DNA of 59,839 bases from a virus (taxonomy: Duplodnaviria > Caudoviricetes), in IMG/VR virus record IMGVR_UViG_3300022188_000012, positions 1-59,839 of that record. One strand, given 5' to 3'. Under the pieces are notes generated by a model, which worked only from the letters and a program-made list of their open reading frames with translations, had not been told where the DNA came from and made no database searches. Positions 3,697 to 59,839 of the stretch are shown piece after piece; the first letter of the stretch is position 1; every line of letters starts with the position of its first letter. A program made the translations under genes and the position numbers.

Positions 3697-3887
3697 AGCT
3701 CATCTTCGAGAGTCAACACCTAACAACTGGCAACTTCAAGGTGAATCTGTATCCGGAAGGTTGGGTACTGTCACTAGTTTCTACGTATGAAGTCTCATTT
3801 TGGGGAGAACTCCGCGTGAAGGACGTTGATGGGCTCCTTTGTGCATTACTGATTTGTGATATGGTAATCTCGTGGAGAGAAGAATGA
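3693..3887 (+). CDS. Small beta-rich array protein 1
   Basis: MKLIF...SFWG...ISWREE; paralog of next three. Confidence 0.8.
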   Translation: MKLIFESQHLTTGNFKVNLYPEGWVLSLVSTYEVSFWGELRVKDVDGLLCALLICDMVISWREE

Positions 3888-4078
3888 AACTCACTTTCTC
3901 AGTTCGTTACTTAGTCACCGAAAGAATTCTAGTCATCCTCCTTCAAAATGCCTGGTGGCTCAGGGAGGAGTTCACAGATGAGGTCTGTTTTAACGGAGTG
4001 CATAGGACTGAGAACCCACACGGGTTTGAGTGCGGACTTTCAGTCCACAACATGACGATCTCATGGAGAGGGAAATGA
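3884..4078 (+). CDS. Small beta-rich array protein 2
   Basis: MKLTF...CFNG...ISWRGK; ATGA overlap. Confidence 0.8.
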   Translation: MKLTFSVRYLVTERILVILLQNAWWLREEFTDEVCFNGVHRTENPHGFECGLSVHNMTISWRGK

Positions 4079-4269
4079 AGCTCGTCTTCAAAGGGCGGTT
4101 GCTGACAACTAGCAATTCTGAGGTAAACCTGTATCCTGAGTGGTGGGTGCTCTCTCAACCGTTCACCCATGAGGTCTCATTTGATGGAGAGATTCACTCA
4201 CAGAATCAGTCAGGATTTCTCTGTAGTTTGTCTGCTCTCGGAGTCCTAATCTCATGGAGAGAAGAATGA
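4075..4269 (+). CDS. Small beta-rich array protein 3
   Basis: MKLVF...VNLYPEWWVLS...SFDG...ISWREE; close paralog of protein 1. Confidence 0.8.
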   Translation: MKLVFKGRLLTTSNSEVNLYPEWWVLSQPFTHEVSFDGEIHSQNQSGFLCSLSALGVLISWREE

Positions 4270-4466
4270 AGCTCACCCTCATGGGCTCAAGCCTCACAAC
4301 CTTGGAGTATCAGGTCACAATCTATCGCCAGACCTGGCGTTTGAGTTGGCCATTTACTTTTGAAGCTACGCTTGATGGTACTCTTTTTGAAGAGAACCCT
4401 TATTCTTTTGGAGTGGGAATGAATCCCTTCGACTTGGCAATCAGATGGAGGGAAAATGAGGATTAG
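4266..4466 (+). CDS. Small beta-rich array protein 4
   Basis: MKLTL...TLDG...IRWRE. Confidence 0.8.
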   Translation: MKLTLMGSSLTTLEYQVTIYRQTWRLSWPFTFEATLDGTLFEENPYSFGVGMNPFDLAIRWRENED

Positions 4467-21695: not shown

Positions 21696-21923
21696 ATGTG
21701 CTTAATAAAAATAGTTTTGAATTTCGCAATACTTATAATTTTCGTTCTTCTTGGGCTCTTCCACTATCTCAAAACAGGAGACTGGATACTGTTTGTAGCT
21801 CTTGTATTGAATGGAATAATTCTTGATGTACACGACTTCATAATCATTGACCTAATGGACAACATTCATGAGCTCGAGGTTGGTAAAGATGCGCTTAATC
21901 CAGAACATCCCAAAAACTCCTAA
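21696..21923 (+). CDS. Membrane protein, paralog B
   Basis: LKTGDWILFVALVLNG...HDF. Confidence 0.7.
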   Translation: MCLIKIVLNFAILIIFVLLGLFHYLKTGDWILFVALVLNGIILDVHDFIIIDLMDNIHELEVGKDALNPEHPKNS

Positions 21924-24900
21924 TGGAATCTGCATCGTCGGAGAAGCCCCTGGGGCCGACGAAGAAAAGTATGGCAAACCCTTCATCGGTTGGGAGGGCC
22001 AATATCTTCGCCGTCAACTCAAAGCTGCAGGGATCAACTTCCACGAATGCTACGTCACTAACACAGTTCATGTGAGGCCGCCCAGGAATAACTACGACGC
22101 CCTCACTTCAGCTCAGATCTCTGAAGGGATAAGCCAGCTCAAAAAGGACATTGAACACTGGCGACCTAATGTTGTGATCGCCGTAGGCGCGAAAGCCCTC
22201 AAAGCCCTCACAGGGCACACCCAGATAACTCAATTCCGTGGAGCCGTCATCGAGTCCACCCTCGTCCCAGGCCAAAAGGTCGTCGCTACAATCCATCCTG
22301 GTGGCATCCTCAGAGGCGGAGAAAAGATGGGCCGCTACGAGCCCATTCAAATCCTGGACTTCAAAAAGGCCCTCCGTGAGTCAAGGTTCCCTGAAATAGT
22401 CTACCCAGAGCGCAACATTCTCTCAGTGTACTCACAAGCGAGGGCGTTGGAGCTTCTCGAATCTGTCACAGACATCCCTGATCCTGTCGCAGTTGACATC
22501 GAGACCATTGGCCCAACCCTATCAGCCTATGGAATCGCCACCAGCAAGAGTGAGGCTTTTGTAATTACGAAGGACCTCCTCCGAGACCCTACTATCCTTC
22601 GTGCAGTCGCACGATTCGCCTTCTCCTCCACACCGAAAATCTTCCACAATGCCCTCTTCGACTGCCTCCATGGGTTGGGCTACTACAAGATAATCACCAA
22701 CAACATCCTCTGCGACACCATGATTGCCCAACATGCAGCATATCCGACTCTTCCTAAGAGCTTGGCCTTCTGCGCTTCTATTTACACGAACGAAGTCTAT
22801 TGGAAATCGGAAGGAAAGACAATCTTCGACGACATCAAGAGAGGTCGCACTGTGGACTGGGAGAGCTTTTATATATACAACGGAAAGGACTGCTGCCTGA
22901 CCTACGAGATCTACGAGATCCTGATGAAAGAGATCGACGAATGGGGCGCTCGCAGAGCCTTCGATCTCATGATGTCTCTCATCCCTCCTTGCCTCTTCGC
23001 TATGCTCCGTGGGACAAAAATCTCCATGTACAAGCTCCTCCAATTCAAAGAAGAAAACGAAAAAGCTATCGAGGTCCTCACTCGGATAAAGGACGCCGTC
23101 ATCGGAGACGTAAACGTCCAGTCCCACAAGCAGCTAAAAGAACTCATCTACGATAAATGGGACATGCCCAAACAGTTCAGAGGTAAACGCCTCACAGTCG
23201 ATGACAAAAAACTCGCTATGCTTGAACGCTACCCTACTCCCTATCGTCATCAAATAGGAATGATCCGCCTGCTCAAAAAATATCTCAAACGCCGAGACTT
23301 CTACAACCTCAAGACCAACGAAGATGGCCGCATTCGCACAGCCCTCAAGATCACAGGAACCTACACTGGAAGGTTCTCATCCTCGGAGTCGATCTTTGGT
23401 TCAGGGAAGAATTTGCTCAACATTCCAAAGGAAACTCGCAAGTTCTACGTGGCTGATGATGACAAGATCATGATTCAGGGTGACCTCTCCCAAGCTGAAG
23501 CTCGCATCGTCGCAGCTCTCTGCGGTGACGAAAAATGGTTGAGGGAGTTCGATGAGATAGACGTGCACAGGAAAGTTGCTGCAGGGCTCTTCAATGTCCC
23601 CTTTGATCAAGTCACAAAGTACCAGAGGAACATCGCCAAGCGTGTAGCCCATGGATGTGTCGACGGTTTCACTGAGATTCTGACTCCTTCAGGTTGGAAG
23701 TACATCAGTCACTATGACGGGACTGAACCTCTGTACATTGTATTTCCTCAGCTTGATGGTCTAGGACTGTTTGCCTATCCTGATGAGTTTGCTGAGCTTC
23801 ATTACAAAGGGCCAATGGTGCATTTTAGGAGTCCTGGAATAGATCAATTTGTAACGATAGATCACTATCTTCCAATAAAGACATCGAGTGGTAGAGTGAA
23901 CAAAGTCCAGACTAGTGAGCTGATAAAGAAGAAAGATGTACGCCTTCCTAAAACCGTAAAGAACATAGGCATCATTGACGAACGCCCAGAGATGCTTCAA
24001 CTGTTTATCGCCTTCCAAGCTGACGGTACAGCATCTTGTAAGTACACGCTAGACTGGCACTTCGTGAAGAATCGTAAGATAGCTAGGTTGGTACACATCC
24101 TGGCATCCCTGGACATTCCTTATCATTACTACACTAATAAAGATGGGACAACAAAAATTTCTGTCCGCAAGTCTGATGTTCCAGGGTGGATTTGGAAGAA
24201 GTCTCTCAAAGACCTAGCTTTTCTAACATTGTTCAAGCACGATTGTCTGCAAGTCATGTCACGTGAGCTAACCAAATGGGATGGTCATGAAGGAAGGACT
24301 GCAAGACGCTTCATTACCACTGACATGGAGGTAGCTAAGGGAGCACAGCTTCTCCATGCTCTTTCAGGACTTGGAGGAGGCAACATCTACATAAAGCCGC
24401 CTGGAGAGTACTCAACAAAGCCAAACCTAGTGGTCGCACTAAACAACCGTAAGAACGTGAGGATAGGAGGACACATTGCCACCGTAAAGGATTGGGAGGG
24501 AACCGTTTACAACGTAGGCGTCCCATCAGGGTACTATCTCATTAGACGAAACGGTGTGATATCAGTTACAGGCAATACCCACTATGGGCTGGGCAAAATC
24601 CTCCTGAGCGAAATCCTCGGCTGCTCCCCAAAAGAGGCCCAAACCCACAAAGACCGCTACTACGAGCTGAGGCCAAAGCTCAAAGATTGGCAAGAACGGG
24701 TCAAACACACCGTAAGAACGAAACGTGTGTTGCGGACCGTGTTTGGACGTGTGATTCAATTTTTCGGACCAATTACGGACAAGCTATACCGTGACGCGGT
24801 AGCGTCCGAACCCCAATCAACGTCAGCGGACTATCTCAATACAGGGCTTGTTCGTTTGTACGAACATAATCTACCGTGGTGGGAATTTCTTTTGTCCGTG

Positions 24901-25110
24901 TACGATTCAATACTTTGCCAAGTCCCAGACAATCTTGATGTCATTGAAGAAACAATTCAAACAATGAAAGAGCTTGTTGAGATCGAGATCGTGATCAACG
25001 GACTCCCTATGGTCATACCTCTTTCATTCGAGCTGGGCTACTCATGGGGTGAAATGATCGAAATCGAAGACGATGACATTGAATCTGCCTACAGGAAATT
25101 GCAACGATGA
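21889..25110 (+). CDS. polA: Family A DNA polymerase with N-terminal uracil-DNA glycosylase (family 4-like) domain, intein-containing
   Basis: GEAPG and ATIHP (UDG); DIET, FHNALFD, YNGKD (3'-5' exo); TGRFSS, DLSQAEARIVA, RNIAKRVAHG/THYG, VYDSI. Confidence 0.9.
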   Translation: MRLIQNIPKTPNGICIVGEAPGADEEKYGKPFIGWEGQYLRRQLKAAGINFHECYVTNTVHVRPPRNNYDALTSAQISEGISQLKKDIEHWRPNVVIAVGAKALKALTGHTQITQFRGAVIESTLVPGQKVVATIHPGGILRGGEKMGRYEPIQILDFKKALRESRFPEIVYPERNILSVYSQARALELLESVTDIPDPVAVDIETIGPTLSAYGIATSKSEAFVITKDLLRDPTILRAVARFAFSSTPKIFHNALFDCLHGLGYYKIITNNILCDTMIAQHAAYPTLPKSLAFCASIYTNEVYWKSEGKTIFDDIKRGRTVDWESFYIYNGKDCCLTYEIYEILMKEIDEWGARRAFDLMMSLIPPCLFAMLRGTKISMYKLLQFKEENEKAIEVLTRIKDAVIGDVNVQSHKQLKELIYDKWDMPKQFRGKRLTVDDKKLAMLERYPTPYRHQIGMIRLLKKYLKRRDFYNLKTNEDGRIRTALKITGTYTGRFSSSESIFGSGKNLLNIPKETRKFYVADDDKIMIQGDLSQAEARIVAALCGDEKWLREFDEIDVHRKVAAGLFNVPFDQVTKYQRNIAKRVAHGCVDGFTEILTPSGWKYISHYDGTEPLYIVFPQLDGLGLFAYPDEFAELHYKGPMVHFRSPGIDQFVTIDHYLPIKTSSGRVNKVQTSELIKKKDVRLPKTVKNIGIIDERPEMLQLFIAFQADGTASCKYTLDWHFVKNRKIARLVHILASLDIPYHYYTNKDGTTKISVRKSDVPGWIWKKSLKDLAFLTLFKHDCLQVMSRELTKWDGHEGRTARRFITTDMEVAKGAQLLHALSGLGGGNIYIKPPGEYSTKPNLVVALNNRKNVRIGGHIATVKDWEGTVYNVGVPSGYYLIRRNGVISVTGNTHYGLGKILLSEILGCSPKEAQTHKDRYYELRPKLKDWQERVKHTVRTKRVLRTVFGRVIQFFGPITDKLYRDAVASEPQSTSADYLNTGLVRLYEHNLPWWEFLLSVYDSILCQVPDNLDVIEETIQTMKELVEIEIVINGLPMVIPLSFELGYSWGEMIEIEDDDIESAYRKLQR
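23656..24576 (+). mobile_element. Intein (307 aa) with LAGLIDADG-like endonuclease in PolA motif B
   Basis: Begins CVDGFTEILT, ends VISVTGN before Thr; block B VTIDH; FIAFQADG and KWDG; removal restores AKRVAHG-THYG. Confidence 0.9.
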
Positions 25111-53796: not shown

Positions 53797-54004
53797 GCAA
53801 CTTGTAGAAGATCATTGGGCATACCACGATATCTTGATCCCGATCTTCCTCCAGGAAGACCCAAAAAAGTTCTACCAAGCCAAGAAATTATGGGGAGAAT
53901 GGTACAAAGCGATCGGAATCCATTTTTACAAGCACGCAATTGAGGACATTAAGGAAGGCATCATCTCAGTTCCTGGTGGAACCGACCCAAGAAAAAGGAG
54001 GTGA
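53774..54004 (+). CDS. Hypothetical protein
   Basis: AAGGAG RBS. Confidence 0.65.
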   Translation: MNWEERAKQLVEDHWAYHDILIPIFLQEDPKKFYQAKKLWGEWYKAIGIHFYKHAIEDIKEGIISVPGGTDPRKRR

Positions 54005-54010
54005 TCGCAG

Positions 54011-54181
54011 TTGACCGCAGAAGAGATCGCAACCCAAGTCCTTCACCTAGCGAAGGAGAAACAGAATGACCCTGCCACAGCGTCGAGCGACCTCATCGCT
54101 TCGATCCATGCGACGTGGATGGAGGTGGGGCTCATTCTAGGAAGGGAGATAGTACGTCTTAGAAAGGAGGGACAACTATGA
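54011..54181 (+). CDS. 56-aa hypothetical protein (TTG start), not in the ORF track
   Basis: AAGGAGGTGA RBS; open to TGA 54181. Confidence 0.55.
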   Translation: MTAEEIATQVLHLAKEKQNDPATASSDLIASIHATWMEVGLILGREIVRLRKEGQL

Positions 54182-54339
54182 CCACTAAAGTCGTTATTAC
54201 TAAAAATCCCCATAAGATCAAGGTTAACGATGTAGAGATTCCAGGGATCACCGACTACGAGGTTGACTGTATTCCTACGAGAGGACCAATTGTGGAGATA
54301 AAGATCAAGGCAGATATCCTTGAGGTGAAGAGTAGATGA
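54178..54339 (+). CDS. 53-aa hypothetical protein (MTTKVVITKNPHKIKVND...), not in the ORF track
   Basis: AAAGGAGG RBS, ATGA overlap. Confidence 0.6.
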   Translation: MTTKVVITKNPHKIKVNDVEIPGITDYEVDCIPTRGPIVEIKIKADILEVKSR

Positions 54340-54442
54340 AGGCTCAAGCTGCAAACGCAGTTGTTCTAGCTGGAACCGTCCTCATCACTCGATCAAAGAT
54401 CGGACTGGACGAGATTACCTTGACTCCACAGGAGATCACCCT

Positions 54443-54700
54443 ATGGGAGAGTGGAAAACGGTTGAGACCCCCACAGGCAAGGTCACCTTTGGGCCAGCAG
54501 CCCAAAGGCCGCTCAGGGGCGTCTGCTGGCACAAGCGACATCGCCGATGGCTGGTGAGGTACAAAGGGAAGTATGTAGGTTGGGCGAAAACCTTGGAACA
54601 AGCTAACGAAATGAGGAGGGCGTATGAGCTTGAAAGAGAAGGAAGAAAGGTTCAAAGTAAGGTTAAGGTTGATCGAACCTTTGTTGGGGACCGTTCCTAA
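54443..54700 (+). CDS. AP2-like DNA-binding domain protein
   Basis: RGVCWHKRHRRW...YVGWAKTLEQANEMR; AGGAG RBS. Confidence 0.6.
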   Translation: MGEWKTVETPTGKVTFGPAAQRPLRGVCWHKRHRRWLVRYKGKYVGWAKTLEQANEMRRAYELEREGRKVQSKVKVDRTFVGDRS

Positions 54701-55226
54701 AGACCCAGATGTCTACTCCAGATACATCGCTTCCAAGGCTCCCCAAGAGGAGTTCATGGACGAAGAGGTAGACACAGTGGAGCTCGAAGAGCAAGGGTGG
54801 ACAGGGTTCCACAAGGATGACAAGGGCATTTTCATCTACAACTACATGATCAAGGGCTTCCTAAAGAGCGCGTGTGAGGTATGTATGGGTGCGGGAATCA
54901 TAGACAAGATTCCAGCGTATAAAAAGTGGATTGACCTTACCGTCTTTATTGATCCACGCCGGATCAGGATGGGAAAGGCCGAACCCGATGGATGGCTTGA
55001 GCGGCCTCTGAGGACGATGACTCCCAAAGGGCCGAGGGTCACCGTTTGCAGGAGTGACTACGTTGATGAAGGGACGGAGATGGAGTTCACAGTTAGGATC
55101 ATCAAGAACAAGGTAGGATTGAATAAGGGCATTATAGCCCAGCTCCTGGAGTACGGCCAGTACGTGGGGTTAGGCCAGTGGAGAGGATCGGGAGGATATG
55201 GAAGGTTCGAGGCAGAGGTGCTCTAG
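54624..55226 (+). CDS. Stand-alone RAMP / Cas7-like RNA-binding protein
   Basis: N-terminal strand VRLRLIEPLLG, IKGFLK helix, C-terminal Gly-rich loop GLGQWRGSGGYGRF. Confidence 0.75.
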   Translation: MSLKEKEERFKVRLRLIEPLLGTVPKDPDVYSRYIASKAPQEEFMDEEVDTVELEEQGWTGFHKDDKGIFIYNYMIKGFLKSACEVCMGAGIIDKIPAYKKWIDLTVFIDPRRIRMGKAEPDGWLERPLRTMTPKGPRVTVCRSDYVDEGTEMEFTVRIIKNKVGLNKGIIAQLLEYGQYVGLGQWRGSGGYGRFEAEVL

Positions 55227-55655
55227 AACGGTGCGGTTTCGCAAAGGCGAAGTGCGGTATTGTGGCGCCACAGCATTGTACGGTGACGTGGTGGAGTAGT
55301 AAGGTTCAGCAGAGGTAAAGCCAGGTGAGGTGACGGCTAAGCCATGCCTTGCGTAGAGAAGCGAAGGAACCGCACAGTGCAGCCAAGGTCTTGTTTCGTA
55401 AGGTCCAGGGCGTAAGGGCAAGATAAAGCGAAGTGCCGTAAAGGAGGAGTTACGCGATGTACTGGCAAGGCCAGGTGAAGTGACGGCAATCTATTGCGAT
55501 GTAACGGTGACGTCAGGTAAGTCACCGTGAGGTGGCGGTGAGGTCAAGCAAACCAGCGTTAGGGAACAGCGGGGTTAGGAAACGTAAAGGCAATGCATAG
55601 TTGGACTAAGCGTCGGCAACGCTGGGCAAAGCTACGTCTAAGCAAGGCAGAGTAA
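55227..55655 (+). ncRNA. Putative non-coding guide-like RNA array of NGYNN pentamers
   Basis: About 80 phased pentamers in blocks of mostly 21/26/31 nt; no + strand ORF in the track; directly after the RAMP stop codon. Confidence 0.65.
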
Positions 55656-55679
55656 ACTATCTTTTCGTAGAGGTACACA

Positions 55680-56267
55680 ATGATAGTGATCACAGGAACA
55701 GGGAGAGCGGGGACAACCTTTCTAGTAAGCTTGTTCACGCTCTTGGGATTTAGGACAGGCTTTTCTAAAGAGGAAGTGCTCAAGACTAACTGGGGTTGGA
55801 AGCCTGGAGACGTGACAAGGGCTGGCTTAGAGAAAGAATGGTGGCAGGATCTTGATGTTGTCAAGAGCCCTTCTTTCTGCTACAGCATCCACGAGATCAT
55901 TGAGGCCAAGGAAGTCGAGTGCGTTCTCGTCCCGATGAGAGATCTTGATAAGGCTGCGAAGTCACGGATAGTGAACCAAGAACGTGCTGGCACAACATCG
56001 CCTGTGGCAGGGGGCTTTATCGGAGGGGCCACAGACCTGGAAACGCAAAAGAGGGTTTTGTTAGAGATGGTTTACAGCTTGTGCTTGTCCGTGGCTCGGT
56101 CTTTTGTTCCTGTGGTGTTCTTGGAGTTTCCAAGGTTCATCAATGACAGCGGATATTTGTTCAGAAAACTGACAGAGCAGGCCAAGATAGACCTAAACAG
56201 CGACGACTTCAACGAGGCCTTCACAAGGCTGTCAAGGCCTGAGTTAGTGGAGAGTTGGAATGAATAG
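55680..56267 (+). CDS. Sulfotransferase-like P-loop protein
   Basis: ITGTGRAGTT PAPS-binding-like loop, VVKSP, MRD. Confidence 0.65.
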   Translation: MIVITGTGRAGTTFLVSLFTLLGFRTGFSKEEVLKTNWGWKPGDVTRAGLEKEWWQDLDVVKSPSFCYSIHEIIEAKEVECVLVPMRDLDKAAKSRIVNQERAGTTSPVAGGFIGGATDLETQKRVLLEMVYSLCLSVARSFVPVVFLEFPRFINDSGYLFRKLTEQAKIDLNSDDFNEAFTRLSRPELVESWNE

Positions 56268-58365
56268 GAAGAGGTTTTCAGTAGTCATCCCTTACATTGA
56301 TGGAGGGGTTCCTCATGCGATGAAGCTCCTCCCTTCTCTAAAGAGGAGCAGTCTGAAGCCGAGGGAGATCATCTTTGCAGGGGCAGCCACAGACGGGACG
56401 ACGGAGTGGCTCAAGGCCCAGGAAGGGGTCACCATCGTGGAGAATCCAGGTGGTCCATCCCCTTACGGGGATAACGTCAACTTAGGTGTGCGCTTCGCCA
56501 AAGAAGAATGGGTCTTTGTCCTCAACATCGACACCATCGTTGGAGAGGAGTTCTTTGAGCGAATGTTGAGGGACCCCGGATCTGGGATGACAGGTCCTCT
56601 CTCAAATTGGGTTTTGCCGGACCAGCAGGTCAAGCCTGCCCGTCCCAAGGAGGTGGAGGCCATCAACGCCTCCCTGAAGGGGAGGCCCACACAGGATGCG
56701 CCCATCATCTCAGGCCTGGCGTTCTTGATCAGAAAGGAGACCTTCCTCTCCGTTGGAGGGTTTGACCCCTCGTTGAAAAACGGGGACGAGGACACAGACC
56801 TAAGCCTCAGGCTCCTGAAGGAGGGGTACACAAATAGGATCGCTTATGACACCTACATTTGGCATGAAGGCGGCCAAGGAGGGGTGCATAACCGACATCT
56901 CCTGGCGGAGAAACACCACTCCACGGAGTGGAGGATTGGATGTTATGTGAGGGTTAAAGCGGAGAGGGAAGAGGTCGAGCGCTGGCTGAGGAGGCACTAC
57001 CCCATCTTTGACGAGATCATCTTTGTCGATGACGGGTCACCCTTTGACTGGGAGGAGGTCCGATCCCGATGGGGAGAGATCACTGTCATCCACGGGGCAG
57101 AGGGCCTCTCAGAAGGGGAGCAGCGGGCCATAGGGATTGCGGTGGCCCGCCAAAAAGGGGTTACTGCTCTTGTTAACCTAGACCACGATGAGTTCCTGGA
57201 GCCAAAGGTCACACGAGAAGAGTTGGTCCGCCTCCTCTCCCTCCCATTGCCAACAACTCTGGGATTCGTTGCTAGGTTTCTTCATTTGTGGAACTCCCCA
57301 AACCAGTTCAACGTGGGTTATCCTCCTCATGAGCACTTGTTCATGATCAGGCTGTTGCCTGGGATCAGATACAGGTTTGACCCGTCCAAGAGGTTCCACG
57401 TCCCCAGGCTTCCACAGTTGACCAAATCCGCCATGGTGCCAACCAACATCAGGATTGTGCACGAGGGCTACATGGACCCTGTTGTCAGGGAAAGGAAGAG
57501 AAGGTTCTACGAAGAGGGTGATTCCATCAAGGACCCAGTGGACATCGGGGAAGAGGGATATGCGCATATGACAGATCAGCGCAGGCTGACCTTGGGCGAG
57601 TGGACCGGAAGGTCGGAGGACTACACAATTTCTGGGAACATGATGGCAGAAAGAGAGGAGCCCTACACCCTTCAGATTGCTCTTGAGACCCTTGCTCCCA
57701 TCACGGATGACCTCGTTCTGAGGGTTAGTCCCGACAGGGAGGATTTGGCAGCCATTGGAAGAAGGTTCGAGGCCACCCTCATTAGGACAGCCTGGAAACG
57801 AGACTTCGCGGCTCACAGAAATGAAATGCTTGCGAGGTCAAAAGGATCTTATGTCTTCTATCTTGACCCAGATGAGCAACTCCCTTGGCCAGGAGAGGTC
57901 CCTGAGATTGTGAACTACAGGCCCTCAGGAGCGATTTTCACGATCTCCCATCCTGGAGGGCTCAACTCCAAAGCGATTAGGTTGTTCCGCAGAGAGGGCG
58001 CCGTCTTCGACGGGATGGTGCATGAGCACGTCAAGGTCAGACGACCAGTTCGCGCAAAGGGCACGATCATCCATCTAAGGCGGCCACTCCAACGCTACAG
58101 GGAGATGAATAGGGAGATGATAAGGATGTGCCCCAAAGATCCGCGACCTTGGTTCGATGAGGGGTTGAGGACAATCCTCGACGGGAACTTCCCGAAAGGG
58201 GTGGCGTTGATCAGGAAGGCCATCAGGCTTGCGCCCGATGAAAGAGAAATGAAGGCGGCCTTGGTGAGAGTGCTTCTCACCTGGGCTAAGCTCCTTGCGA
58301 AAGAGAGCGGCGTTAACGTTCCGGATAAGTTTCATGATGAAACTTGCTCAGGGATGCCCAACTGA
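56260..58365 (+). CDS. Multi-domain GT2 glycosyltransferase with C-terminal TPR-like repeat
   Basis: FSVVIP...LNID...GGFD...EDTDLSLR; VDDGS...LDHDE; DFAAHRN...LDPDE...VHE. Confidence 0.85.
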   Translation: MNRKRFSVVIPYIDGGVPHAMKLLPSLKRSSLKPREIIFAGAATDGTTEWLKAQEGVTIVENPGGPSPYGDNVNLGVRFAKEEWVFVLNIDTIVGEEFFERMLRDPGSGMTGPLSNWVLPDQQVKPARPKEVEAINASLKGRPTQDAPIISGLAFLIRKETFLSVGGFDPSLKNGDEDTDLSLRLLKEGYTNRIAYDTYIWHEGGQGGVHNRHLLAEKHHSTEWRIGCYVRVKAEREEVERWLRRHYPIFDEIIFVDDGSPFDWEEVRSRWGEITVIHGAEGLSEGEQRAIGIAVARQKGVTALVNLDHDEFLEPKVTREELVRLLSLPLPTTLGFVARFLHLWNSPNQFNVGYPPHEHLFMIRLLPGIRYRFDPSKRFHVPRLPQLTKSAMVPTNIRIVHEGYMDPVVRERKRRFYEEGDSIKDPVDIGEEGYAHMTDQRRLTLGEWTGRSEDYTISGNMMAEREEPYTLQIALETLAPITDDLVLRVSPDREDLAAIGRRFEATLIRTAWKRDFAAHRNEMLARSKGSYVFYLDPDEQLPWPGEVPEIVNYRPSGAIFTISHPGGLNSKAIRLFRREGAVFDGMVHEHVKVRRPVRAKGTIIHLRRPLQRYREMNREMIRMCPKDPRPWFDEGLRTILDGNFPKGVALIRKAIRLAPDEREMKAALVRVLLTWAKLLAKESGVNVPDKFHDETCSGMPN
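58327..58345. promoter_or_regulatory. Phage palindrome AAGTTTCATGATGAAACTT
   Basis: 26 of 27 nt identical to the 21204-21230 context. Confidence 0.7.
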
Positions 58366-58433
58366 AGACGTTGTAAATGCAAAGCGTATCCTTGTTGAGC
58401 GTACGTACCTGGCGACTCCTGGAGGAGGACACC

Positions 58434-58988
58434 ATGCAGCTCCACGACGACCTTTTCAACATGAGGGCAAGATTTTATGAGGAGAGCTCTCGACGACGAG
58501 CAGACTCGTCCAGGGAGCTCCTCAAAGGACTGCTGGTTGTCCTCGCGTTGAAAGAGGACTCCTTCAAACTGTCGTCAGGCGCCCTCAGCAGGTGGTATGT
58601 TGATGCGAGAATGGTGACGACCCACCCTATCGGGGCAAGGCTGGTCGCAGAGGAAATGGCAGCTTGCATTAGAGAAGTGGATGCAGTCGGCGAGCCTGAG
58701 TTGGGGACGGTCCCGATCTTGGGCGCCCTCGCTGCCCTCAAGGGGTATCCCACCTTCATTGTCAGGAAGCAGCCTAAGGGACATGGGCTGGGCAAGATGG
58801 TTGAGGGCCACCTCGGCCAAAGGGTTGCCCTCATCGACGATGTCGCTACCACAGGCCACTCTCTGGAGAGAGCGATTGATATCTTAAAGGGCGCCCAGAT
58901 CGAGGTTGTGAAGGTTCTCATCCTCGTGAGTCGTGGATGGGAAGGGGAGGCTATCTTCACCTTAGAAGAGCTCACCACAAACAGCTAA
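58434..58988 (+). CDS. pyrE: Orotate phosphoribosyltransferase
   Basis: FKLSSG...YVD, VRKQPKGHG, PRPP motif LIDDVATTG. Confidence 0.85.
   Translation: MQLHDDLFNMRARFYEESSRRRADSSRELLKGLLVVLALKEDSFKLSSGALSRWYVDARMVTTHPIGARLVAEEMAACIREVDAVGEPELGTVPILGALAALKGYPTFIVRKQPKGHGLGKMVEGHLGQRVALIDDVATTGHSLERAIDILKGAQIEVVKVLILVSRGWEGEAIFTLEELTTNS

Positions 58989-59793: not shown

Positions 59794-59839
<46 letters not shown>

Follow-up and report, generated by a model that had tools for sequence, protein, structure and literature searches.

A probable VIPR locus with a G-Y anchor and a regularly punctuated repeat array in a tailed phage from a hydrothermal vent metagenome

VIPR, short for Viral Interference Programmable Repeat, denotes systems that are CRISPR-related and were described in 2026 (bioRxiv 10.64898/2026.04.26.720920). 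According to the accessible parts of that report, they are composed of a small ancestral RAMP protein (Vipr), usually one vap gene, and vrRNAs built of GGY/NN pentamers, and the outcome is the transcriptional silencing of rival phages and satellites. Each repeat is bound by one protomer, whose pockets accommodate the flipped GGY bases, and in the pairing of the NN bases with double-stranded DNA (dsDNA) each third target base is skipped (bioRxiv 10.64898/2026.04.26.720920; 10.64898/2026.04.26.720927; both seen in part). Here, we analyze a gene for a Cas7-like RAMP and the pentameric tract directly behind it, which are present on a 59,839-nucleotide (nt) stretch of viral DNA (IMG/VR record IMGVR_UViG_3300022188_000012, positions 1 to 59,839; "the window" is this whole stretch). 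We conclude that the locus is very probably a VIPR system of a tailed phage and, hence, of a kind that has already been published. The initial annotation of this DNA had proposed a non-CRISPR RNA-guided system; the VIPR features described below agree with that proposal, except that the system is not new and belongs to a published family.

The published VIPR systems fall into seven types, and 71% of the loci are viral or proviral. The vap gene is typical rather than universal, as some founders stand alone. The experiments concern type II systems from enterobacterial and Pseudomonas phages, which have vap1 and vrRNAs of 9-16 GGY/NN units, each with a conserved structured 3' tail. Repeats of other forms (NNNGG, YNNNG and NNNNG) are also mentioned, and the legend of fig. 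S18 refers to "staggered" vrRNA arrays (for all of these, the accessible text of bioRxiv 10.64898/2026.04.26.720920). Another preprint, also available in part, lists 21 clusters with non-canonical cores such as WGT/NN (bioRxiv 10.64898/2026.10.21.760802). As the type II exemplar we used Escherichia phage SUSP1 (KT454805.2; label L087), whose Vipr (P0269) has 195 amino acids and whose tracts are transcribed and co-purify with Vipr, as stated in the same partly available report (bioRxiv 10.64898/2026.04.26.720920). The other described relatives are the Cas7 effectors of class 1 CRISPR systems (type VII Cas7, Csm3/Cmr4 and Cas7-11), which advance in 6-nt steps of which five bases are read, whereas VIPR advances in 5-nt steps of which two are read.

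The vipr gene of the window (Table 1) encodes a protein of 200 amino acids (P0001) with the C-terminal end ...GLGQWRGSGGYGRFEAEVL. The initial annotation had described this open reading frame (ORF) as carrying a C-terminal glycine-rich loop and its product as RAMP/Cas7-like, and both descriptions hold. Of the loop residues, G182, G184, Q185, R187, G190 and G193 do not vary across 38 homologs, and W186 hardly does. The AF2 model of P0001 made with these homologs (pLDDT 86.5, pTM 0.81) has an RRM-like core, a long beta-hairpin (strands E123-133 and E136-147) and, preceding the last strand, the glycine loop, which is modeled with low confidence. Judged by Cas7 superpositions, the hairpin is likely the thumb; its residues R127, R130, G136 and S144 are invariant in the family alignment, and R138 and R143 are almost invariant. 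Comparison of the model with the PDB using Foldseek, a check already suggested in the initial annotation, returned 161 matches at E ≤ 1e-3. All 48 matches listed are CRISPR type III, type VII or Cas7-11 complexes or subunits, the best among those listed being 9j9e_D1 (E 2.5e-8), and the Vipr entries from cryo-electron microscopy are absent among them. The predicted fold of P0001 is Cas7-like, on which the Foldseek matches and the superpositions agree. By sequence, the sole match in the PDB is SelB (E 0.67), which is a chance match, and no family model of Pfam, NCBIfam or PADLOC, Cas7 models included, matches the protein.

Sequence comparisons indicate that P0001 is homologous to the experimentally characterized SUSP1 Vipr, and this relationship is distant but consistent. 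P0001 matches phrog_4652 over its full length (E 3e-4), and SUSP1 Vipr matches the same family with an E value of 1.4e-96. A BLASTP alignment of the two proteins is collinear across 181 columns (E 1e-4, 23% identity), and hhalign aligns the profile of the P0001 family with that of 29 SUSP1-clade proteins with a probability of 92.9% (E 3.8e-7, 178 columns). Both proteins are phage-borne, small single-RRM RAMPs of similar size (195 and 200 amino acids), and their glycine loops, GVGDWRPRFGRF in SUSP1 Vipr, align with each other and have the form G-x-G-[DQ]-W-R...G-R-F in common.

The residues that line the repeat-binding pockets are partly conserved. In SUSP1 Vipr, H17 and D177 read the first G of the repeat (G1), R138 and W178 hold the second (G2), and R179 forms, together with others, the pocket for the pyrimidine (Y3), as far as described in the accessible part of bioRxiv 10.64898/2026.04.26.720927. 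The hhalign alignment maps W178 and R179 onto W186 and R187 of P0001, whereas H17 and D177 correspond to T23 and Q185, both of which are invariant across the P0001 family. The thumb arginine of SUSP1 Vipr could not be mapped onto P0001, as the alignment is poor in that stretch. The retention of the G2 and Y3 residues and the replacement of the G1 residues fit with a repeat in which G2 and Y3 are constant and position 1 is free. The alignment therefore suggests that the specificity for the first G has been lost in the P0001 branch.

Such a repeat is indeed what follows the gene. A total of 453 nt (55227-55679) separate vipr from the next ORF, which starts at 55680, and a five-phase Viterbi parse resolves nearly all of this region into 84 units of the form x-G-Y-N-N. 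Position 2 of these units is G in 0.91-0.92 of cases and position 3 a pyrimidine in 0.89-0.92, and position 1 is G in only 0.25-0.26; seven of the 84 lack the G. Identity within the tract is 0.411 at lag 5, 0.426 at lag 21 and 0.433 at lag 26, and about 0.2 at other lags. Relative to 1000 dinucleotide-preserving shuffles, none of which reaches the observed values, the z-scores at these three lags are 6.7, 7.4 and 7.9, respectively. Only four of 2362 150-nt windows outside the array pass the 0.12 threshold (highest value 0.164), which the array passes over its whole length, and windows within the array reach 0.24. The parse of some 430 nt straight after the stop codon into 5-mers, as originally annotated, is thus borne out, and the non-G first base, which had been taken as the sign of a variant, matches the alternative YNNNG repeat of the published family, since x-G-Y-N-N is Y-N-N-N-G in another register. 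Tandem Repeats Finder (score 30) reported nothing in the tract, which is uninformative because only two of the five bases are fixed.

The array does not have significant secondary structure (fold z -0.65 relative to shuffles), which suits an unstructured guide. Rfam gave no match at E ≤ 1 over 54000-56500 and, therefore, there is no hammerhead or known tail; likewise, the first 75 nt past the vipr stop codon have no motif in common among 18 relatives that could represent a conserved leader or tail. Scans for sigma-70 promoters and terminators found nothing on the + strand between the gene and the array, which is compatible with read-through from vipr and proves nothing. A 13-nt inverted repeat (55345/55637) was dropped as a candidate element, because it is not conserved in the closest relative, L088.

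The pairing of this gene with such a tract is a property of the family. Homologs are abundant: 1106 proteins in a 90%-clustered collection score at E ≤ 1e-3 (among 1166 candidates), and 1131 of 1770 representatives at 50% identity score at E ≤ 1e-10. From IMG/VR, 162 stretches were confirmed and 80 were kept; together with six from a first scan that repeated them, and after removal of 12 duplicates (L001-L006, L011, L019, L022, L023, L034 and L065), they gave 74 non-redundant viral loci. A lag-5-periodic tract adjoins the homolog in every one of them (in 55 on its downstream side, in 15 on its upstream side and in four on both). Periodic tracts account for 10% of the bases of these loci, and a further 11 lie in other parts of the flanks. 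The downstream autocorrelation check that had been suggested for homologs therefore came out in favor of the pairing, and the likeness to phage RAMP plus GGY/NN loci (VIPR) proposed in the initial annotation is corroborated by this strict gene-array pairing together with the phrog_4652, BLASTP and hhalign matches. Pooled over the 74 loci and the window, G2 is present in 0.92, Y3 in 0.83 and G1 in 0.24 of the units; a distant subgroup (L062, L067-L072 and L078-L086) keeps G2 and has Y3 in only about 0.5. Outside the viral metagenome collection such loci are scarce: a genome set of 185,579 species yielded only five confirmed loci, all in metagenome-assembled genomes, and GenBank phages only four matching records, which are unannotated gut phages (36-38% identity). 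In a cluster look-up, X0TDZ5 turned out to be a SUSP1-clade protein and MCD6148977.1 a 74% relative, and none of the five founder accessions was recovered.

Two other observations were made on family members. In a 73%-identical relative (L095), the tract begins, at 1207-1260 of L095 and just past its vipr stop codon, with a 7-nt rhythm, with AAAGGNN occurring about seven times, instead of a 5-nt one. A single 150-kb IMG/VR contig contains the same vipr locus twice (L010/L011) in inverted orientation about 27 kb apart, which is either a true duplication or an assembly artefact.

Comparison of close relatives indicates how the array evolves. Four were found in the metagenome collection, with Vipr proteins that are 96% (L088) or 90-91% (L089-L091) identical to P0001, while the identity of their vipr genes at the DNA level is only about 85-86%. 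Between the window and L088, the array is a mosaic: one guide segment is common to both and another has been replaced (Table 1), 55571-55630 is again about 93% identical, and 55240-55276 and 55437-55570 are essentially unrelated, pentameric all the same. In L089-L091, the upstream genes and vipr align (about 86% at the DNA level), nothing aligns beyond 55248, and the alignment resumes (about 85%) at position 56259 with the glycosyltransferase gene. Mismatch rates in three further array pairs that can be aligned are 0.03 at G2, 0.14 at x1, 0.15 at Y3, 0.08 at N4 and 0.14 at N5, and in the window-L088 alignment 19 of the 25 changes at Y3 are C/T exchanges. Fixed anchors combined with variable parts that change freely or are replaced are what should be expected of a guide array, as judged from these alignments. 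Contigs from four DNA runs include variants over vipr, and over the array all are identical to the window with one exception, a short piece (X2) over 55563-55633 with five differing letters, so that per-position variation of the array is unreadable from them.

A second level of order in the tract is a punctuation by six-base units. The peaks at lags 21 and 26 arise because one extra base recurs every few units, and the stray "c" letters in the original parse are therefore systematic and correspond to these six-letter units (Table 1). Across 75 arrays we counted 1297 extra bases, of which 925 are G and 885 lie at the G phase. Spacings of exactly 21, 26, 31, 36 or 41 nt account for 572 of the 1244 distances between them, and 831 are within 1 nt of these values, whereas only 156 equal 20, 25, 30, 35 or 40 nt. 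A logo of 655 extra-base sites reads G-Y-(A/G)-A-N-G-G-Y-A and shows hardly any conservation beyond that. A block of the cleanest array (L047) consists of GGYNN, then three to five xGYNN units, and then one base; blocks in clean arrays begin with GGY, often GGTA, and those of five, six and four units are the commonest. The published filament has six subunits per turn when free and five when bound to DNA (bioRxiv 10.64898/2026.04.26.720927, available in part). The similarity between block size and subunits per turn is noted as a coincidence, without any further claim, and it is a guess that the extra base marks a block boundary or serves as a register anchor about once per filament turn. The accessible text of bioRxiv 10.64898/2026.04.26.720920 contains none of the words hexanucleotide, "6 nt" and register; judged from the wording of its legend, the published "stagger" may be the same phenomenon. 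It should be noted that runs in bioRxiv 10.64898/2026.10.21.760802 are, in the part seen, called only at exact 5-nt spacing, which would split punctuated arrays into short runs.

How does this locus compare with type II, the best-studied VIPR? In SUSP1, Vipr lies between two pentamer-bearing spacers, and both systems have five-base units with fixed G2 and Y3 on the gene's strand in the non-coding DNA flanking vipr, without CRISPR repeats or other cas genes. The same parser applied as a control to three downstream SUSP1 arrays found G at position 1 in 30 of 39 units, in contrast to 26% here. In addition, the SUSP1 locus comprises SUSP1 Vipr, vap1 (phrog_5926) and four vrRNAs, whereas the window has no conserved partner gene, and the SUSP1 arrays are 11-15 unbroken units with a structured tail, in contrast to one tailless 84-unit tract with an extra base every three to six units. 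The reading of G1 also differs, since the SUSP1 residues responsible are replaced in P0001. Having no tail, a degenerate G1 and no vap1 homolog, the locus is therefore not VIPR type II. Membership of class 1 CRISPR-Cas does not fit either: in the window, the Cas7-like protein is phage-encoded and is not accompanied by a CRISPR array, Cas5, Cas6, Cas10 or Cas1-2, and the adjacent repeat has a 5-nt instead of a 6-nt step. No CRISPR-like direct repeats were found in the 59.8-kb window, and no cas family matched any of the 33 ORFs scanned, out of 84 ORFs of at least 70 amino acids; both scans agree with the initial annotation, which had recognized neither CRISPR repeats nor cas1/2/3/5/6. The features by which VIPR loci are recognized, namely Vipr homology, a flanking array of at least four pentamers, a non-CRISPR context and a viral carrier, are all present, and the array conforms to the related consensus YNNNG, not to canonical GGY. 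Thus, the Cas7-like gene, its pairing with the array and the lack of CRISPR and cas elements place the locus in the VIPR family, in a "YNNNG"-type branch, and the features that it lacks are either merely typical (the vap gene) or specific to type II (the tail).

Based on the published type II systems, the locus may function as follows. vipr and the array directly behind it would probably be co-transcribed, and Vipr protomers would polymerize along the RNA, one on each five-base unit. Pairs of protomers would sequester the fixed G and the pyrimidine, plus the unspecified first base, in protein pockets, leaving the two variable bases exposed. The exposed dinucleotides would then pair with dsDNA in a gapped register, in which two bases are read and one is skipped, and the filament would block transcription of a competing phage or another mobile element. 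Transcription, filament formation, a DNA rather than an RNA target, the 1-nt skip and silencing are all carried over from type II. As far as it can be judged from the sequence, this corresponds to the model of the initial annotation, in which one protomer binds each pentamer of an NGYNN array and exposes NN as a gapped guide, and which is the published VIPR mechanism.

The NN bases were also compared with codons; a codon fit of NN would echo the codon-periodic targeting described in bioRxiv 10.64898/2026.10.15.759431 (available in part). The NN dinucleotides fit positions 1-2 of sense codons best of the six frames in 36 of 51 loci (+400 bits, 4850 units). The fit vanishes when dinucleotide association alone is considered (r ~0.6 in all six frames; AA is 2.6-fold over-represented), so that it gives a weak hint of codon mimicry that derives from base composition. 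Stop triplets formed by N4-N5-x1 occur 157 times in 4799, near the 179.8 expected, and hence nothing suggests that x1 tracks the wobble base.

Several observations weigh against the assignment to VIPR. The link between P0001 and SUSP1 Vipr is distant at 23% identity, and hhalign against the single SUSP1 sequence gives a probability of only 60.5%. BLASTP clustering of ORFs of at least 45 amino acids around the 75 loci found no partner in common beyond Vipr (no vap), the next neighbor clusters being antisense shadows of vipr and the arrays. According to the fold score and Rfam, the array lacks the kind of structured 3' tail that type II vrRNAs carry. The 10 runs (from seven studies) that contain the stretch include no RNA run. 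Local target scans with 10- and 12-unit windows and skips of 0-3, with or without an extra skipped base at six-base units, gave scores equal to those of reversed-unit decoys. Four exact 11-unit NNx patterns (three searched in viral contigs, one in genome contigs) had no match; these scans detect perfect matches only, cover four of about 74 possible windows, and assume that six-base units leave the target register unshifted. Finally, the published structures offer no explanation for the periodic six-base units, and a different assembly or reading rule is possible. Among the scan results, a few 18/20 matches under the 1-nt skip are A/T-rich and of low complexity and come from two identical arrays, and those at skip 3 reflect self-homology of the unmasked tract; neither group was counted.

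This leads to the question of whether the branch reads its array differently. It is possible, if doubtful, that the x-G-Y-N-N branch has a distinct grammar, in which an extra G after every 4-6 units creates single-turn blocks, a GGY anchor starts each of them, and the relaxed pocket (H to T, D to Q) frees a third base. If true, the arrays would be about 18 mini-guides or frame-reset modules rather than a few long vrRNAs, and it would still have to be worked out how the commonest environmental VIPR branch is read. Another alternative, which we consider rather unlikely, is that P0001 is a relative of Vipr with a code different from the published one: separate guides of 4-6 units (about one filament turn), or reading of N4, N5 and the next x1, or an RNA target. 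The variation of x1, as free as that of N5 (0.14 in both), and the replacement of both G1-reading residues would suit this alternative, whereas the stop triplets are near the number expected for an independent x1, and conservation of the W and R responsible for flipping out G and Y argues for the same geometry. Similarly, the quantization of blocks at 21, 26 or 31 nt with their GGY (often GGTA) start in clean arrays, the five to six subunits per turn of the published filament, and the SUSP1 arrays of 11-15 units without internal slip would be in line with it; however, the segments swapped between the window and L088 cover several blocks (134 nt) instead of single ones, and only 8-12 specified bases would give a guide little specificity.

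It is very improbable that the tract acts as DNA, in the form of phased protein-binding sites or a structural element of about 5.2 bp per unit, with the RAMP-like protein being unrelated or DNA-binding. Five units plus the extra base do amount to 26 bp, by which arithmetic two units equal the helical repeat of B-DNA, and transcription of the array is here deduced by analogy. However, the fixed G-Y is specific to the gene's strand in the window and in its relatives, the spacing of the extra bases varies from 21 to 41 nt and therefore keeps no fixed helical phase, the adjoining protein has an RNA-binding RAMP fold with G/Y loop residues of the SUSP1 type, and the equivalent SUSP1 tracts are transcribed and co-purify with the protein. 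Equally hard to credit is a decaying, functionless remnant or a tract that encodes a peptide: seven units lack the G and mechanically called ORFs of 46-83 amino acids overlap the tract on both strands, whereas the vipr ORF is intact with protein identity exceeding DNA identity relative to L088-L091, G2 is kept in 92% of the units, the antisense ORF clusters of related loci are shadows of vipr and arrays, and a coding tract is excluded by the 5-nt period, impossible as a reading frame, together with those of the window-L088 indels (23, 6, 5 and 10 nt) that are not multiples of three.

The VIPR locus is embedded in a tailed-phage genome, nearly all genes of which are on one strand. They include genes for a terminase, portal, protease, major head protein, tape measure, DNA polymerase, primase, helicase, Sak4-like annealase, methyltransferase and holin. 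The initial annotation had called the RAMP gene "solo", which agrees with a clade without a conserved neighbor; however, an AP2-like ORF overlaps the vipr start here and in four relatives. Its matches are weak (Pfam AP2, E 0.0071, below the curated cut-off; phrog_99, the DNA-binding part of an HNH endonuclease, E 4.6e-4), it is 88-94% identical in all four closest relatives, three of which stop eight codons earlier, and it is absent from all other loci searched. It may, as a weak candidate that we rate low, be a lineage-specific accessory DNA-binding protein. A 73-amino-acid ORF (54336-54557) overlaps it in a different frame; its protein identity in the same four relatives is 69-87%, as opposed to 88-94%, and this weaker conservation suggests that the call may be partly spurious. 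The 195-amino-acid ORF behind the array is absent from L088-L090, whose contigs reach that far and in which the array abuts the glycosyltransferase gene, pointing to a recent insertion outside the VIPR system.

Table 1. Positions of the vipr gene, its array and adjacent features in the window
Feature	Positions	Strand	Basis or remark
AP2-like ORF of 85 amino acids, overlapping the vipr start	54443..54700	+	weak Pfam/PHROG matches
vipr gene, 200-amino-acid Cas7-like RAMP (P0001)	54624..55226	+	ORF
Codons of predicted beta-hairpin 123-147, likely thumb	54990..55064	+	secondary structure of the model
Codons of glycine-rich loop G182-F195, GLGQWRGSGGYGRF	55167..55208	+	family alignment, 38 homologs
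vrRNA array, 84 units x-G-Y-N-N	55227..55670	+ (gene's strand)	Viterbi parse, periodicity; begins at first base after stop
Punctuation, 18 six-base units, 15 of them xGGYNN	55245..55640	+	unit parse; blocks of 3-6 units
Starts of six-base units	55229, 55245, 55266, 55292, 55313, 55334, 55365, 55381, 55416	+	
Starts of six-base units, continued	55442, 55463, 55484, 55505, 55536, 55562, 55588, 55614, 55635	+	
Guide segment in common with L088	55277..55436	+	95-100% identical in 20-nt steps
Guide segment replaced in L088	55437..55570	+	~50-60% identity, pentamer rhythm retained
ORF of 195 amino acids after the array, N-terminal glycine-rich GTGRAGTT motif	55680-56267	+	Pfam MCM4_WHD E 0.011, below cut-off

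Some other features of the genome are worth recording. The right end (56260-58988, + strand) encodes a protein of 701 amino acids, in which three stretches match glycosyltransferase family 2 domains (Pfam E 4e-19), and a 203-amino-acid phosphoribosyl-transferase-like protein (phrog_32468), and looks like a moron-type cluster for surface or nucleotide modification beside the VIPR locus. Near the left end, a 24-nt sequence with the internal palindrome TTGTGAAAAATTTCACAA is present in two perfect copies (311-334 and 398-421, 87 nt apart), which resemble operator or origin sites. The three tandem units at 3867-4281, spaced by about 191 nt, whose starts are 73-82% alike over 33 nt and which span small ORFs, are probably a triplicated small gene. 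The DNA polymerase ORF of 1080 amino acids (21868-25110, + strand) matches polymerase PHROGs at residues 12-598 and 905-1073 and a PhoH-like ATPase (phrog_32482) at 593-818, and may be a fusion or contain an inserted domain. The window starts with eight G (1-8) and ends with about 45 T (about 59795-59839); these terminal runs are likely assembly or library artefacts, which suggests that the window is the whole contig.

In summary, the locus places the VIPR family in a phage from a hydrothermal vent community, as the runs containing the stretch are labelled hydrothermal vent metagenome. The kind of system is known; particular to this branch are the G-Y anchor and the punctuated guide format. 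Metagenomes seem to contain far more of the branch than do the reference databases behind the published survey, and two traits mark it: an anchor relaxed from G-G-Y to G-Y, in step with two pocket substitutions, and a regular one-base punctuation. For engineering, it could be of use that the fixed anchor is shorter and that the array is divided into blocks. The natural exchange of guide segments, seen here among phages sharing 85-96% identity elsewhere, is the sort of sign that a programmable weapon between competing viruses should leave.

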